A stretch of DNA of 11,793 nt from assembly GCA_038826135.1 (NCBI GenBank), contig JAWBON010000035.1:1-11793 (forward strand). The letters are read 5' to 3'. The translations under genes and the position numbers were made by a program. A model generated the notes under the pieces. That model worked only from the letters and a program-made list of their open reading frames with translations. It searched no databases and had not been told where the DNA came from. Positions 2,849-11,793 of the stretch are shown here, piece by piece. This DNA is from Candidatus Odinarchaeota archaeon. GTDB lineage: Archaea; Asgardarchaeota; Odinarchaeia; Odinarchaeales; Odinarchaeaceae. How positions within the stretch are numbered: the first letter of the stretch is position 1; each line of letters begins with the position of its first letter.

Positions 2849-3687
2849 AGAAGATCCCTCATCTTGTTTGAAAGATAAGTTACTAGTTCATCTATCATAT
2901 TTATATCCAGCTCTCTGACTCTTAAATCACTATAAGGGGCTTCATATAATACTTGTTTTTGAACATCTTTTATTATATTTAACCTATCCATATAGTGTTT
3001 AATAGCGGAATGAAGTTTTTTATTTTTATAAAGAAATAGTTCGTTAACTATTTTAGTGAACGCTTCAAGATTGCTTTTTATTTTAATTTCTTTTTTAGGT
3101 AGAAGTTTAACTATAGCCGAGTCAACTTTAGGTCTCGGATAGAATGCGGTTCTGGGAACTATTTCAAGTATTTGTACATCTGTTCTCAAAGCCGCATTTA
3201 CACTCAGCCTGCAATAGTTTGCACTACCAGGTTTGGCTATAAGTCTTTTAGCGAATTCTAATTGATACATTAAAACCCCTATCTCGAATTTATATGATAG
3301 TATTTTAAACGTTAAAGGTGAAGCGATATTGTATGGTATGTTCGCTACAATTTTATTAAAATGCGGGTACTCGCATTTCAACGCGTCGCATTCGAGAATT
3401 TCAATGTTGTCATATTCTGCTGAGCGTTTTCTTAATATTTCGACAAGAGATTCATCAAGTTCTATAGCGTATATTTTTTTTACTAATGGTGATATTTTAA
3501 TTGTTAAATTACCTATACCAGCCCCTATCTCTAAGACTGTGTCCTCCTTATCTAATTCACCTGCTTGTAACTGTTTTGAAATATACTTAGAATCTGTTAT
3601 AAAGGATTGGCCTAGTCTTTTACGCAATCTTATACTATTTTCACGCAGTATTCTCTTCGTCTCATCTAAAAGATTGTAATTATACAT
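2845..3687 (-). CDS. rsmA: 16S rRNA m6,2A dimethyltransferase KsgA/RsmA/Dim1 (280 aa)
   Basis: Motifs KRLGQSF, VLEIGAGIGNLT, AIELD, DAL, VANIPYNIASP, LMYQLEFAKRL, RLSV, AFYPRPKVDSAIV. Confidence 0.95.
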   Translation of the reverse strand: MYNYNLLDETKRILRENSIRLRKRLGQSFITDSKYISKQLQAGELDKEDTVLEIGAGIGNLTIKISPLVKKIYAIELDESLVEILRKRSAEYDNIEILECDALKCEYPHFNKIVANIPYNIASPLTFKILSYKFEIGVLMYQLEFAKRLIAKPGSANYCRLSVNAALRTDVQILEIVPRTAFYPRPKVDSAIVKLLPKKEIKIKSNLEAFTKIVNELFLYKNKKLHSAIKHYMDRLNIIKDVQKQVLYEAPYSDLRVRELDINMIDELVTYLSNKMRDLL

Positions 3688-3698
3688 CGTGAAACTCT

Positions 3699-4265
3699 TT
3701 AGAATCTGGTAAATATCTGGTATTTATCCTGTTTTTCAAGCTCGTTAAGTATTCTTTTAACTATCATTTTTTTAGGGTCGGATATTCTAACCCTGGCCAC
3801 TAAATCGTTAAAACTGTCGAATTGTTTTCTCTTCCGCTCCTCTATTATCTCCCACATGAGTTTTTTCCCTATACCCGGTAAAAGCTCAAGCTGGTGCATT
3901 CTATTTGTTAAAGGTCTGGCTTCATTAAAGAAATTTATAAAATCTAACTCTCTCTTATCAACGATTTTTTCAACAGCTACAGGCAGCTCCATTTTAGCTG
4001 TTGTAGTTAACTCCTCGTAGTCTATTCTCTTTTTAACATGGTCTATTTTATCCCGGTTTCCAACCCCGATAAACACTCTTTCATGCGTGTTAACTGTAAC
4101 ATCCTTTTTAGGTGTAAGCTCGAGTAATGTGAAAAATTCTTCACCAACAGCTTGAATAACAGGTTCATGTGTGTAAGCCTGCCTTTTCACGTCTAGCTTA
4201 CCGTTTCTTAAGAAGTCTAGTACATAGGCGTACTCCTCGTATTTCTTCGAGCTTTGAAAACTCAT
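3699..4265 (-). CDS. DUF655 family predicted RNA-binding protein (HhH-containing, 188 aa)
   Basis: Motifs YEEYAYVLDFL, QAVGEEFFTLLEL, FFNEARPLTNRMHQLELLPGIGKKLMWEIIEER; conserved position between rpo4 and ksgA in archaea. Confidence 0.9.
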   Translation of the reverse strand: MSFQSSKKYEEYAYVLDFLRNGKLDVKRQAYTHEPVIQAVGEEFFTLLELTPKKDVTVNTHERVFIGVGNRDKIDHVKKRIDYEELTTTAKMELPVAVEKIVDKRELDFINFFNEARPLTNRMHQLELLPGIGKKLMWEIIEERKRKQFDSFNDLVARVRISDPKKMIVKRILNELEKQDKYQIFTRF

Positions 4266-8625: not shown

Positions 8626-8916
8626 ATGAGTGAGCTGATATCTAAAAATGTTGTCCTCCATATGGCTTGGTTATCCAGGATTTTTTTAACAGAGGAGCAG
8701 GTTGAAGCGATGACTAAACAGTTAAATGAGATTTTAGCATATTTTAGAAAACTTGACATTGTAGATACCAGTAATGTGCCCTTAGAATTATACGTGACGC
8801 CTCTCAAAAACGTTGTTAGAGATGACGTGGTGGGAGAGTCCTTAGACCCGGAGGACGCGTTGAAAAACGCGCCTAATAGAGAAGGTAAATTCTTTAAAGC
8901 ACCTAAAATGATGTGA
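8626..8916 (+). CDS. gatC: Asp-tRNA(Asn)/Glu-tRNA(Gln) amidotransferase subunit C (96 aa)
   Basis: Motifs [48 protein letters not shown]; SD AGGTG; directly upstream of gatA and gatB. Confidence 0.93.
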
Positions 8917-10429
8917 TTGAAATGAAGCGCTTATATGAGAAGCCTTTATACGAGTTAATGGACCTTATAAGAAGCCGAGCGATATCGGTTGAAGAGTTAA
9001 ACTATCAATTATTAGAGAATATTAAACACGTTGAACCTCAAATCCATGCTTTTATAAACCTGTTTGAAGGGGAAGCTCTATCTTTAAGCAGGTCTGTTGA
9101 CAGACATTTACTCGAGAAAGAGAATTCACCTGCTTTAGCAGGTGTCAACGTCGCTGTGAAGGATAACATCTCATATAAGGGGCATCCGACAACATGCGGC
9201 TCTAAGATTTTAGAATCTTATATTCCACCATATAACGCCACAGTTGTGAATAAAATTCTCTCCCAGAAAGCTATTATAATCGGTAAAACAAACATGGATG
9301 AGTTTGCAATGGGCTCTTCAACAGAGCACAGTCATTTCGGACCTACTAAAAATCCCTTCGACACATCTAGGGTTCCAGGCGGCTCATCCGGTGGTAGTGC
9401 CGCGGCTGTTGCAGCAAACGAGGCTGTCATCGCTCTGGGCAGCGACACAGGCGGTATCTATATACTTTAATGTATATAGCCGTAGGTGTGCGGCAGCCTG
9501 CATGTTTCTGCGGCGTAGTAGGGTTTAAACCATCATACGGTCTTGTAAGCCGTTACGGTCTAATAGCGTACGCTTGTAGTTTAGATCAGATAGGGCCTAT
9601 CGGTAAGAATGTCAGAGACGTAGCCATACTATTCGACTTCATAAAAGGGTATGATAACTATGATTCTACAAGTTTAAACCATGATATTGGAAGCGCTTCA
9701 CTATTCTTAGACAGTGATCTTAAAAATCTGCGTTTAGGTGTTGTTAAAGAGTTTTTCGGGGAGGGAACTGATAAGCGTGTTGAATCAGCTGTATGGGAGG
9801 CTGTTAATAGATTAGAATCTATAGGTTGCATGTACGATGTAATATCTTTACCGTACGTGGAACACGCTATCCCCGCTTACTATATTATCGCCATGTCTGA
9901 GGCTAGTTCAAATCTTGCAAGGTACGATGGAGTAAGATACGGTTACAGGGCGGATATAGACTCGGATTGGAACGATGTCTTTTCAAAAACCAGGCAGGAT
10001 GGATTCGGCTTAGAGGTTAAACGGCGAATTATGCTCGGAACATTTGCATTAACGGCAGGATACTTTGACCAATATTATTTAAAGGCTCTACAGGTTAGGA
10101 AACTAATTCAAGACGACTTTAAGCGGGCGTTCAAAAAATACGATATACTTGTAGGGCCAACATCCCCTATCCTACCGTTTAAACTGGGAGAAAAAATCTC
10201 AGACCCATTAGAAATGTATAGAATAGACGTGGACACCGTGCCTGTCAATCTCGCCGGGCTGCCTGCTATATCAATCCCCTGCGGGTTAAGTAACGGTCTG
10301 CCTATAGGAGTGCAGCTTATAGCTGATTTCCTAGAGGACTTGAAACTGTTAAATTTATCCTATAAACTAGAATGCGAGCTGAATCTTAAACTAAAACCTA
10401 AGCATATTATCGGTGGTGAATTTGACTGA
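8913..10429 (+). CDS. gatA: Amidotransferase subunit A, intron-containing: join(8913..9456, 9486..10429), 495 aa (492 aa if started at ATG 8922)
   Basis: The two track ORFs are the N- and C-terminal parts of one amidase-signature protein ([38 protein letters not shown] | [26 protein letters not shown]). Removing 9457-9485 gives GAC ACA GGC GGT A/GT GTG CGG CAG CCT = DTGGSVRQP, and 544+944 = 1488 nt = 496 codons. Confidence 0.92.
9457..9485 (+). other. Predicted 29-nt bulge-helix-bulge-type (EndA-spliced) intron in gatA mRNA: TCTATATACTTTAATGTATATAGCCGTAG
   Basis: Central 4-bp helix GCGG (9451-54) / CCGT (9480-83). 3-nt bulges TA^T (9455-57) and AG^G (9484-86). Perfect 8-bp intron stem CTATATAC (9458-65) / GTATATAG (9472-79) with a 6-nt loop. 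Exon-exon helix CACA (9446-49) / TGTG (9487-90) with G9450 unpaired. Canonical cuts after the second bulge nucleotide coincide with the junction required by protein conservation. Confidence 0.88.
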
Positions 10430-11793
10430 AGGTGAACTTATTATAGGTCTAGAATGCCATGTTCAGCTAACAGCGTTGAAAACCAAACTGTTCTGTTCCT
10501 GTAATGCAGACTATAGAAGTCTTGAACCTAACACTGTGCTCTGCCCTACATGTTTAGGCCTACCGGGGGCGCTGCCGGTGGTTAATAAGGAGGCTATCAC
10601 TTTAGGTTTAAAAGTGGCTAAAGTTTTAAACTGTCAGCTATCTGATAGAATCGTATTTTTCCGTAAGAATTATTATTATCCGGATATGCCTAAAAACTTT
10701 CAAATCAGTCAATATGATAGAGTCGGCGGAATCCCCCTGGGCAGAGACGGTTATATAATGGTAAAAACTGATTCAAGTGAAAGAAAAATCAGAATAAGAA
10801 GAATACACTTAGAGGAGGACCCTGCTAGAATAGTATACGTCGGCTCCATATCCACTTCACCTTATAGTTTAATCGATTATAATCGGGCTGGTGTAGCGTT
10901 ATTAGAGATAGTTACCGAGCCTGATCTCACCTCGGATGAAGAGGCTCATATATTTTTGAAGAAGCTTAGATCAATAGTGGAGCATTTAGGTGTCTCGGAT
11001 GGTAGTCAGCAGGGTACTATGCGCTGCGATGTGAATATCTCGCTTCGAGGTGGAAAAAGAGTTGAGATAAAGAACGTGTCCTCTTTCAAAGAGGTTAAAA
11101 AAGCTATTAAATACGAGTTCTTAAGACAAAAACAGCTTATTAAACGTGGAAGTGTTGTCGAACAGGAGACCCGTCACTGGGATGAGGTTAGGAAAATCAC
11201 AGTCTCCATGAGAAGCAAAGAAACCGAGCAAGACTATAGATATTTTCCCGAGCCTGATATTGTTCCTATTTACATAACAGGTGAATGGTTAAGTAAAGCT
11301 TTAACAGATTTACCTGAACTTCCGGATGCGCGTAAAATCCGTTTATCAACACAATATGGGCTGCCCTCCCATGACGCGGAGGTCCTCACCAACAGTAAGG
11401 CGCTAGCCGACTTCTTCGAGGAGGCTGCCCGTCTTTATAAAAATTATAAGAATATAAGTAATTGGATTATGGGTGATCTGCTAAGGAATTTAAACGAACT
11501 AGATATAGAGATTTCAGAGTCGAAGATAACCCCTGATAAACTAGTCTTAATGTTAAAGTTGATTGATGAAGGCGTGATAAGCGGGAAGCTGGGTAAGATT
11601 ATTATAAGTGAAATAGTTCAAACCGGTAAGGATCCTAGAATCCTAGTTGAGGAGAAAAAACTTAAAAAAATCTCCAGTGAAGAAACTCTTAATTTATTTA
11701 TAAACCAGGTGTTTCAAGAATATCCTGGCGCTGTTAAAGACGCTTTAAAAGATGAAAGAGCGGTTCACTATTTGATAGGTCAGGTTATGAAGA
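10422..11793 (+). CDS. gatB: Amidotransferase subunit B, 3'-truncated by the window edge
   Basis: Absent from the ORF track because there is no stop in the window. Hand translation from TTG 10422 (SD GGTGGTGA 10412-19) is open to the end: IIGLECHVQL, TKLFC, CLGLPGALP, RKNYYYPDMPKNFQISQY, IHLEEDP, DYNRAGVALLEIVTEPD, MRCDVNIS, VEIKN, QETRHWD, RSKE..DYRYFPEPD, IGQVMK. Confidence 0.96.
   Translation, partial: MTEGELIIGLECHVQLTALKTKLFCSCNADYRSLEPNTVLCPTCLGLPGALPVVNKEAITLGLKVAKVLNCQLSDRIVFFRKNYYYPDMPKNFQISQYDRVGGIPLGRDGYIMVKTDSSERKIRIRRIHLEEDPARIVYVGSISTSPYSLIDYNRAGVALLEIVTEPDLTSDEEAHIFLKKLRSIVEHLGVSDGSQQGTMRCDVNISLRGGKRVEIKNVSSFKEVKKAIKYEFLRQKQLIKRGSVVEQETRHWDEVRKITVSMRSKETEQDYRYFPEPDIVPIYITGEWLSKALTDLPELPDARKIRLSTQYGLPSHDAEVLTNSKALADFFEEAARLYKNYKNISNWIMGDLLRNLNELDIEISESKITPDKLVLMLKLIDEGVISGKLGKIIISEIVQTGKDPRILVEEKKLKKISSEETLNLFINQVFQEYPGAVKDALKDERAVHYLIGQVMK

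Follow-up and report, generated by a model that had tools for sequence, protein, structure and literature searches.

The closest described counterpart of the intron considered here lies in cbf5 of Crenarchaeota (Watanabe 2002, Yoshinari 2006, Yokobori 2009, PMC2738675), where a BHB intron within protein-coding sequence splits the codon of the catalytic Asp between letters 1 and 2 (G/AY; PMC2738675). Its splicing has been demonstrated by RT-PCR and by cleavage in vitro, and within the literature searched it is both the only archaeal coding-gene intron and the only documented case of tRNA-machinery mRNA splicing inside a coding sequence. In tRNA and rRNA, BHB introns are cut by EndA and the exons joined by RtcB. 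HAC1 and XBP1 carry a short non-spliceosomal coding intron, which is cut by IRE1 at hairpin-borne sites and, in metazoa, ligated by RtcB. Splicing of XBP1 shifts the downstream frame, and XBP1 acts as a switch because its nuclease, IRE1, is a dedicated stress sensor and because both mRNA forms give meaningful proteins. Inteins and group I introns, finally, occur preferentially at the best-conserved sites of essential proteins, which are often catalytic, and the slowness of their loss has been attributed to the need for exact removal (Swithers et al. 2009, PMC2814812).

In a hot-spring Asgard archaeon, a 29-nt insert is confirmed by our reading of the DNA to interrupt gatA within the codon of the catalytic Ser182, between letters 1 and 2 (A/GT). 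The initial annotation had drawn a parallel with cbf5, which proved closer than claimed. In both cases a BHB intron lies within protein-coding sequence and separates letters 1 and 2 of a catalytic codon, the host gene acts on tRNA or rRNA, the intron has been gained and kept in a limited clade, and the host has a hetero-oligomeric splicing endonuclease. Gene, residue and phylum differ (Thermoproteota versus Asgard); splicing of cbf5 has been shown experimentally, that of gatA is predicted; and gatA is one of several interrupted mRNAs in its genome. Our literature search found no mention of an intron in gatA or in any Odinarchaeal mRNA. A second essential gene split at letters 1 and 2 of a catalytic codon, and in the archaeal group nearest eukaryotes, suggests that cbf5 is no one-off.

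The gatCAB locus and the interrupted Ser codon

The window, i.e. the whole stretch of DNA that was analysed, comprises 11,793 nucleotides of one contig (JAWBON010000035.1) from a metagenome-assembled genome (MAG) in 105 contigs, 93% complete. It contains gatC, gatA and gatB as overlapping genes, which we read as one set:

8626 to 8916, forward strand: gatC, 96 aa; Pfam GatC, 74 bits; shares 4 nt with the start of gatA
8913 to 9456, forward strand: gatA exon 1, residues 1-181 and letter 1 of Ser182 (A9456); positions 5-153 of the Pfam Amidase profile
9457 to 9485, forward strand: putative BHB intron, 29 nt, at a change of ORF frame; its excision would give a 495-aa GatA; covariation in 8 lineages
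9486 to 10429, forward strand: gatA exon 2, letters 2-3 of Ser182 and residues 183-495; positions 155-445 of the Amidase profile
10413 to 11792, forward strand: gatB; Pfam GatB_N and GatB_Yqey; overlaps the end of gatA and is cut off by the contig edge

Residue numbers of GatA are counted from GTG 8913; with the alternative start ATG 8922 all of them fall by 3. Removal of the 29 nt in silico yields a product of 495 aa, in which the Amidase domain spans the full length across both exons with one profile position lost at the break, and whose best solved-structure matches are GatA chains. Residues 12-181 align with residues 8-177 of the S. aureus GatA chain 2df4_A at a constant offset of 4, and the alignment to solved GatA chains stops at G181. 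The catalytic triad is accordingly K83 (9159-9161), cis-Ser158 (9384-9386) and S182 (A9456 + G9486 T9487, AGT), equivalent to K79, S154 and S178 of S. aureus GatA, of which Ser178 forms the covalent intermediate (PMC2330236). All three residues are invariant in 105 full-length homologues, and the window of five residues on either side of S182 ranks 11th of 495 in conservation (about the top 2%). Both the triad assignment and the Lys-to-nucleophile spacing of 99 residues, identical to that of S. aureus GatA, had been proposed in the initial annotation and are borne out by this alignment.

As also proposed there, the intron falls between nucleotides 1 and 2 of the nucleophile codon: only the junction 9456/9457 ... 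9485/9486 encodes Ser, and the adjacent registers read Gly or Ile. In the unspliced frame an in-frame TAA (9468-9470) lies inside the intron and leaves a truncated product of 185 aa that lacks the nucleophile, and the unspliced downstream frame of this genome has Gly at position 182. The claim that only precise splicing gives active GatA is in line with this stop codon and with the presence of genes for EndA and RtcB, and holds as a prediction.

Distribution and predicted fold of the insert

An insert at the same codon was found in 8 distinct lineages belonging to two families (genus g1 and family f2), the GatA of family f2 having 57-58% protein identity. Insert lengths are 28, 29 or 30 nt, and the reading-frame relation between the two halves therefore varies among lineages, while an in-frame stop occurs 4-5 codons inside the insert in all eight. 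In twelve further Asgard genomes gatA is uninterrupted, with ORFs of 488-519 aa that contain the GxDTGGS motif in one piece. Gene callers annotate gatA as two ORFs in all relatives, which is an annotation hazard, as such genomes could seem to be without an intact GatA.

A MAG of 105 contigs in which the two halves of the gene lie in different frames may raise the suspicion of a frameshifted pseudogene or of a fault in assembly or sequencing. However, the same insert recurs in independent assemblies, closed or near-closed chromosomes among them, and in DNA contigs from two separate samples. Both halves are strongly constrained (77-86% identity within the genus, with every invariant residue kept), pairing within the insert region is compensated between lineages (see below), and no other gatA or asnS was found in the genome. 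We regard artefact or decay as hardly credible. The contig check covered two libraries labelled metatranscriptomic, which are probably DNA, and two DNA runs; none of their contigs showed a joint over 9457-9485. One 250-nt contig, from X9, begins within the intron, at 9465. Neither observation has any bearing on splicing.

A BHB model of the insert and its flanks was drawn by hand and then checked on the alignment of the eight lineages (A2). It comprises the following elements:

9445 to 9448, forward strand: outer (exon-exon) helix, 5' strand; pairs with 9486-9489 in the local MFE fold
9451 to 9454, forward strand: central helix, 5' strand, 4 bp; exon, codons of Gly180/Gly181; pairs with 9480-9483
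9455 to 9457, forward strand: 5' bulge, 3 nt (U A / U); predicted cut 9456/9457, after the second nucleotide; the sole Ser-yielding cut
9458 to 9479, forward strand: inner hairpin; 8-bp helix 9458-9465/9472-9479 and 6-nt loop 9466-9471
9480 to 9483, forward strand: central helix, 3' strand, on the intron side; pairing kept in the alignment
9484 to 9486, forward strand: 3' bulge (A G / G); predicted cut 9485/9486

The inner helix is 100% paired in the eight lineages, with two-sided changes at 5 of its 8 pairs; in family f2 its sequence is largely different and the pairing is retained. In the central helix 90.6% of cells are paired, and an exon third-codon base covaries with an intron base (C-G to U-A). 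Three outer-helix pairs (alignment positions 11/56, 12/55 and 14/53) are kept in all eight sequences, 12/55 changing from C-G to U-A. Altogether 6-7 pairs show two-sided changes, and at most 5 of 500 shuffles match the observed values on those measures, with the reservation that the eight aligned sequences are related and the covariation counts represent few independent events. In slid controls pairing fell to 12-46%. The first base (A) and the last base (G) of the 3' bulge are invariant in 8/8 sequences, and the rest of the intron is variable outside the paired positions, these two bases and the stop-containing loop.

Two drawings of the 3' site can be made. In the first, a 3-nt bulge (9484-9486) is closed by G9450 paired with U or C, a pair present in 8/8 sequences. 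The second is the lowest-energy fold, in which A9449 and G9450 face A9484 and G9485 in a 2x2 internal loop, followed by a G9486-C9448 pair and a 4-bp outer helix. In either drawing the 3' splice site, as modelled, is a relaxed form of the BHB. For this genome the strict BHB drawing has a predicted energy of -7.9 kcal/mol versus -18.0 kcal/mol for the lowest-energy fold (both at 37 C); at 75 C hardly any folding is predicted for the 50-nt RNA in isolation, and a plain MFE fold of 86 nt draws no BHB. The canonical cut rule (after the second bulge nucleotide) joins A to GY and restores Ser182 in the right frame in 8/8 lineages.

The predicted geometry is that of the canonical 37/38 tRNA intron: the exon provides the 5' strand of the 4-bp helix, the 5' bulge consists of two exon nucleotides and one intron nucleotide, and both cuts follow the second bulge nucleotide. 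The length of 28-30 nt is likewise typical of archaeal tRNA and rRNA BHB introns. In contrast to these, the gatA intron sits in an mRNA that is also read by ribosomes and offers no tRNA body to aid recognition, and the lowest-energy fold gives it a relaxed 3' site. A search for relatives of the intron sequence elsewhere in the genome gave no clear one, just short AT-rich matches, and so no sign of an origin by transposition.

Two further readings of the locus have to be weighed against this fold. In a true split gene the two ORFs would be translated apart, their polypeptides would assemble into GatA, and the hairpin would merely be intercistronic. The annotation of two ORFs in all relatives fits such an arrangement, as do ATG 9470, which is in frame with exon 2 in this genome, and the unspliced downstream frame, which reads Ser ahead of VRQPA/IRQPA in 5/8 lineages. 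In the other three (this genome, L007 and L025), however, that frame has Gly at the nucleophile position and would encode a protein without catalytic activity. The lineages share no conserved start codon (the called starts differ, and the ATG is missing in L005), and a break between G181 and S182 would probably not be tolerated, as it falls amid the invariant GSDTGGS loop. Also, covarying exon-intron pairs would be superfluous for an intercistronic hairpin. We hold the split gene to be very improbable. Translational bypass, as in phage T4 gene 60, could draw on matching GGT codons on either side (take-off 9453-9455, landing 9485-9487), a hairpin and a nearby stop codon. Its product would by no means contain Ser182, the landing codon is missing in 6/8 lineages (AAG/AGC or AGT contexts), and the features that are conserved, namely the paired exon-intron helix and the two invariant bulge bases, are those of a BHB; we give bypass practically no weight.

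The anatomy, covariation and distribution of the 29-nt insert make it very likely that it is an intron and that it is spliced. In the scenario we favor, folding of the gatCAB pre-mRNA would pair the two adjacent Gly codons of the exon with the 3' portion of the intron, giving the 4-bp central helix, which adjoins the 8-bp intron hairpin. The splicing endonuclease would then cut behind A9456 and behind G9485, and RtcB would ligate the exons to create the AGT codon of the nucleophile Ser182, so that active GatA would be encoded solely by the precisely spliced mRNA.

Splicing machinery and the supply of Asn-tRNA

The genome encodes the components that such a scenario would need. Three tRNA_int_endo matches represent the EndA family (contigs C45, C72 and C48), and RtcB is encoded on contig C16. 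Asgard EndA has been described as an (alpha-beta)2 type with an L1 loop (PMC5829648), and because two or more EndA paralogues are present, the enzyme of this genome is probably of the broad-specificity alpha-beta type. This housekeeping EndA is the only candidate nuclease found for the gatA intron. ARAGORN predicts introns in 23 of 31 tRNA genes, and BHB-type introns also interrupt protein genes besides gatA, at least four in number: kae1, gcvPA, one radical-SAM gene and one CitG-like gene.

Where AsnRS is absent, GatCAB serves as Asp-AdT (PMC2330236). In the 93% complete genome no AsnRS was found. The only aspS-type gene does not reach the cut-off of the asnS model; it passes the aspS_nondisc model and is of the non-discriminating AspRS type. 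GatDE is present (GatE match), and no second amidase gene was found in the genome, gatA being the sole one. Given the lack of AsnRS, the non-discriminating AspRS and the lack of a second amidase, the supply of Asn-tRNA(Asn) very probably depends on tRNA-type splicing, in agreement with the earlier proposal that GatCAB is needed here: non-discriminating AspRS and GatCAB would make Asn-tRNA(Asn) and would rely on gatA splicing to do so.

The initial annotation went further and saw in this dependence a switch. In that hypothesis gatA splicing would be rate-limiting and vary with the availability of EndA and RtcB, and the supply of Asn-tRNA(Asn) would be adjusted to how much pre-tRNA has to be spliced or to the conditions of growth; in a broader form, core enzymes would be gated jointly by splicing capacity. 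Several observations are in its favor. Active GatA strictly requires splicing, since the unspliced mRNA runs into a stop 5 codons into the intron; gatA is the only route to Asn-tRNA(Asn); the intron is retained at the same codon through two families; a negative-regulator role has been proposed for the cbf5 intron by its authors (PMC2738675); and two of the intron-bearing genes, gatA and kae1, act on tRNA. A gatA splicing efficiency that did vary would add a new layer of archaeal gene control.

Our data nevertheless speak against the coupling. The same machinery is required by 23 of the 31 tRNA genes and by unrelated mRNAs; limiting it would halt translation generally and could by no means convey an Asn-specific signal. 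The same intron type, with the same positional bias, is found in gcvPA, the radical-SAM gene and the CitG-like gene, which are unrelated to tRNA. Apart from the pairing, the two bulge bases and the stop loop, the intron sequence is free, as expected of a plain splice signal. That micro-introns might be enriched in tRNA-metabolism genes is not supported either: 2 of about 8 intron-bearing genes are tRNA-related, which is not significant (estimated binomial P about 0.06 with a 5% background). The suggested resemblance to XBP1 stands for the mechanism only, i.e. a short coding intron, hairpin cut sites, an RtcB-type ligase and a change of the downstream frame. The arrangement of a switch is not shared, as housekeeping EndA takes the place of the stress sensor IRE1 and the unspliced gatA product is a dead fragment.

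We therefore consider the Asn-tRNA switch quite unlikely. A global gate, in which EndA and RtcB would control core enzymes of Odinarchaeia (GatA, Kae1, GcvPA, radical-SAM, CitG-like and others) as a splicing-dependent regulon, is unlikely as well; if it existed, the supply of Asn-tRNA(Asn) would be linked through GatA to the capacity for RNA processing. With such introns in the majority of the tRNA genes detected and in four or more further protein genes, gatA splicing has the appearance of housekeeping. It would most likely be constitutive, and the absence of any dedicated switch is a conclusion we draw with good confidence. The explanation as a whole, which combines a BHB intron, constitutive splicing and biased survival at an invariant codon, appears probable to us.

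Intron positions and other interrupted mRNAs

If the intron is not a switch, its position in a catalytic codon calls for another explanation. Windows whose conservation equals or exceeds that of the window at the intron make up a fraction of 0.025 in gatA, 0.10 in gcvPA, 0.025 in the radical-SAM gene and 0.007 in the CitG-like gene; the position in kae1 alone is unremarkable (0.28). Fisher's combined P for the five introns is about 4e-4, a value that is optimistic because the introns were partly found via their conserved flanks. Run in a cruder form, on pairwise identities to a single distant genome (G011), the test gave only P = 0.057, and its kae1 value is invalid as the G011 kae1 ORF begins at the junction. 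The other micro-introns, too, fall in conserved windows, weakly so for kae1.

The alternative already named in the initial annotation, that such introns simply persist at invariant codons, fits these data better than a switch does, subject to the same ascertainment caveat. An intron would persist there because only its exact removal is tolerated and because selection holds the exonic half of the splice signal fixed. That such a persistence bias accounts for where the intron lies is, in our view, somewhat more probable than not. The reasoning is the one applied to inteins and group I introns; these usually carry homing endonucleases aimed at conserved DNA, whereas BHB micro-introns encode nothing. 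The five introns point to a rule by which such introns, like inteins, are found at invariant sites, and a rule of this kind bears on intron gain and retention in prokaryote-like genomes.

A genome scan by BHB geometry and joined ORFs was tried as a census of interrupted genes and dropped: 507,756 motif matches were reduced to 4,283 and then to 107 clusters, which were mostly ordinary gene boundaries, and one filter lost gatA itself. A junction-spanning blastp search against the intron-poor distant Asgard genome G011 returned gatA alone with strict scores and 47 clusters with loose scores, four of which we trust as credible: gatA, the radical-SAM gene, the CitG-like gene and a gene for a 165-aa protein on contig C3.

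The split gatA gene and its catalytic serine

The genome (1.26 Mb in 105 contigs, 93% complete) carries gatA on an 11.8-kb contig, C35, which in its entirety forms the window; the DNA runs containing the window sequence are hot-spring metagenomes. The amidotransferase genes are arranged as follows:

8626-8916, + strand: gatC
8913-9470, + strand: amidase ORF 1
9470-10429, + strand: amidase ORF 2, in a frame different from that of ORF 1
10413 to contig end, + strand: gatB

Genes for SRP54, an RNA methyltransferase, Pus10, L21e, Rpb4, DUF655, KsgA, a small methyltransferase, a GTPase and a SpoU methylase lie upstream on the opposite strand. The small methyltransferase (MTS/PrmA-like, 2243-2860, - strand) directly follows ksgA; the ORF listing there holds a 67-aa ORF only (2243-2446), so the full domain comes without a canonical start.

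Unspliced, exon 1 reads ...ALGSDTGG and continues as IYIL into a stop. The Pfam Amidase profile is matched from position 5 to 153 by the first piece and from 155 to 445 by the second, i.e. exactly one position is missing at the break. In silico deletion of 29 nt (9457-9485) joins A9456 to G9486-T9487 as AGT and restores a 495-aa protein with K83, S158 and S182; shifting the deletion by one base in either direction reads as Gly or Ile, not Ser. Residues 12-181 align to residues 8-177 of S. aureus GatA (2df4_A) with an offset of 4, so that the triad corresponds to K79/S154/S178, and the Lys-to-nucleophile distance is 99 residues in both proteins. In S. aureus GatA, Ser178 is the residue that becomes covalently linked to Gln in the reaction intermediate (PMC2330236). 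None of the three residues varies among 105 full-length homologues, and the window of ±5 residues around S182 ranks 11th of 495 in conservation. The triad, its spacing and the intron inside the Ser182 codon, as described in the initial annotation, all hold. The gatA start is ambiguous (8913-8924): GTG 8913 shares 4 nt with the gatC stop, ATG 8922 lies three codons further on, and start calls vary among relatives. With ATG 8922 every residue number would drop by 3.

A predicted bulge-helix-bulge intron

Judged by its sequence, the gatA insert represents an intron of the bulge-helix-bulge (BHB) type with the geometry of a canonical tRNA intron. The structure, drawn by hand, consists of (+ strand):

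G9451-G9454 (Gly180/Gly181 codons) with C9480-U9483: central helix, 4 bp
U9455, A9456, U9457: 5' bulge, predicted cut after A9456
9458-9465 with 9472-9479: inner hairpin, 8 bp, 6-nt loop
A9484, G9485, G9486: 3' bulge, predicted cut after G9485

Cutting in the canonical way, after the second nucleotide of each bulge, would break precisely the two bonds required for the Ser codon. The structure is weakest at the 3' site, where a 3-nt bulge is clean only with a G9450-U9487 pair (the equivalent pair is G-C or G-U in 8/8 sequences); the lowest-energy fold has a 4-bp outer helix (9445-9448/9486-9489) and a 2x2 loop instead, which makes the gatA intron a relaxed BHB. Asgard archaea reportedly possess an (alpha-beta)2 endonuclease with an L1 loop, an insert type linked to broad substrate specificity (PMC5829648), and the present genome contains three matches to the EndA splicing endonuclease family plus the ligase RtcB. 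The RtcB profile is matched in two pieces (positions 1-50 and 49-426) about 1.4 kb apart within a single 995-aa open frame (contig C16, 2586-5357; loci L012/L013); the arrangement resembles an intein, here within the ligase expected to join the gatA exons.

The gatA gene is split in all close relatives, comprising three further species of the genus, several metagenome contigs and two sister-family genomes at 57-58% protein identity. Eight distinct intron versions align in register. In the inner helix all positions pair (100%) and five pairs are altered on both sides; in the sister family all eight pairs are retained in a largely different sequence. The central helix is 90.6% paired and shows covariation between position 3 of the Gly180 codon (C or U) and the facing intron base (G or A). 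As a control, pairing falls to 12-46% when the partners are shifted by 1-3 columns. Intron length is 28, 29 or 30 nt among lineages, so how the frames of the two ORFs relate varies, and a single protein results in every lineage only if the whole element is removed. Each of the eight versions runs into an in-frame stop within the intron, 4-5 codons in, and in all eight the BHB cut rule yields A+GY, i.e. Ser.

A split protein was rejected, since the unspliced downstream frame places Gly at position 182 in three lineages (the window, L007 and L025) and has no conserved start codon. Ribosomal bypass between two GGT codons would lose the serine, and the codon it would land on is not kept among lineages. 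Against a pseudogene or an assembly error stand covariation, the lack of a substitute gene and independent assemblies. DNA contigs of two samples read through the insert. One 250-nt contig (9465-9714) starts inside the intron and carries its 3' part joined to exon 2; the source library is labelled metatranscriptomic and flagged as probably DNA.

In twelve further Asgard genomes from this phylum the motif GxDTGGS(I/V)R is uninterrupted and lies within single ORFs of 488-519 aa, and the next-best database homologues (<=60% identity), fragments aside, are full-length. Among the genomes searched the intron is limited to the order holding families f1 and f2, within which it has outlasted >40% protein divergence. 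In the respects testable from DNA the element agrees with a cbf5-type BHB pre-mRNA intron, and its position in the catalytic codon is an exact parallel to that of the cbf5 intron, which divides the codon of the catalytic Asp between letters 1 and 2 (PMC2738675). A literature search found no report of a gatA intron, nor of mRNA introns in Odinarchaeia.

Positions of other mRNA introns

Further protein genes of the genome with introns of this kind are listed below; for tested introns, including that of gatA (0.025), the value given is the share of 11-residue windows whose conservation equals or exceeds that of the junction window, taken from profiles of 26-123 homologues per gene:

kae1 (C27:11636-11661, - strand, locus L163): 26 nt, phase 1, in the Gly of GPGL/GP; 0.28
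gcvPA: 30 nt, in frame with a TAG, between YTP and YQAE; 0.10
radical-SAM gene: 29 nt, immediately preceding Cys 3 of CxxxCxxC; 0.025
CitG-like gene: 25 nt, interrupting the PKPGN Lys codon; 0.007 (rank 2/302)
gene of a 165-aa protein on contig C3: 27 nt

Combined over five introns the Fisher P is ~4e-4, an optimistic value because the detection routes favour conserved surroundings (three of the five were found by homology to a distant genome); a positional test by pairwise identity to one distant genome gave P = 0.057. All five testable introns lie in conserved blocks, which is the reverse of the random placement that would count against the switch according to the initial annotation, but the bias is general rather than special to gatA, and only gatA and kae1 are tRNA-related hosts. 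Inteins and group I introns share this bias, which is attributed to slow loss, since excision has to be precise (PMC2814812). In BHB introns the exon would moreover supply half of the splice signal (the Gly-Gly codons in gatA), so that a codon context that is invariant and rich in G+C, within a genome of 38% G+C, may keep this signal stable. Beyond the cbf5 parallel, the gatA case points to a wider positional rule for such introns.

The kae1 intron seems far more widespread than the gatA intron. In the distant genome G011 (contig C1) the kae1 ORF starts exactly at the junction, as do many public Kae1 ORFs of 243-253 aa; the closest named full-length homologues of the present Kae1 are from Asgard archaea. 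Several radical-SAM homologues (L199, L201-L204, L206; families f19 and f7) have open frames of 226-237 aa starting near CxxxCxxC, compared with 370-380 aa in most others, and may be interrupted there as well or simply be shorter. Reading-frame switches with a net offset of 1-2 nt relative to single G011 proteins occur at C13(-) ~3375-3877 and C62(+) ~2936 (oriented-strand coordinates) and at C22(+) ~17961-17967; possible causes are frameshifts, either programmed or from sequencing, and wrongly placed alignment ends. Signals of this sort in the ribosomal-protein cluster on C25 look like overlapping-frame artefacts.

Asn-tRNA supply and the proposed splicing switch

The genome profile search revealed one gene of the AsnRS/AspRS class and no other; it scores 300 bits with the asnS model, below the cut-off of 342.6, and passes aspS_nondisc, the model for a non-discriminating AspRS, at 556 bits. 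In archaea that lack AsnRS, GatCAB is encoded and serves as the Asp-tRNA(Asn) amidotransferase (PMC2330236). GatE is present for Gln, and the split gatA is the sole amidase-family gene. An Asn-synthase-family ORF exists, but without AsnRS free Asn cannot be charged. We infer that the Asn-tRNA(Asn) of the organism requires spliced gatA mRNA. ARAGORN listed 31 tRNAs; a gene for tRNA-Asn is missing from this list and three calls have a 'stop' anticodon (tta), both probably artefacts arising where a tRNA gene has several interruptions.

The switch proposed in the initial annotation, coupling splicing load to Asn-tRNA synthesis, is not supported by our data; a search of sequencing runs for the locus turned up no RNA run. 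Introns interrupt 23/31 of the tRNA genes (others were clearly missed by ARAGORN), so endonuclease and ligase are needed constantly for translation as a whole and limiting them would carry no Asn-specific signal; unrelated mRNAs are interrupted too, and the positional bias is general. Nor is gatA a demonstrated switch of the XBP1/HAC1 type, as the unspliced mRNA would yield a dead fragment and the only candidate nuclease found is the housekeeping EndA, not a sensor nuclease.
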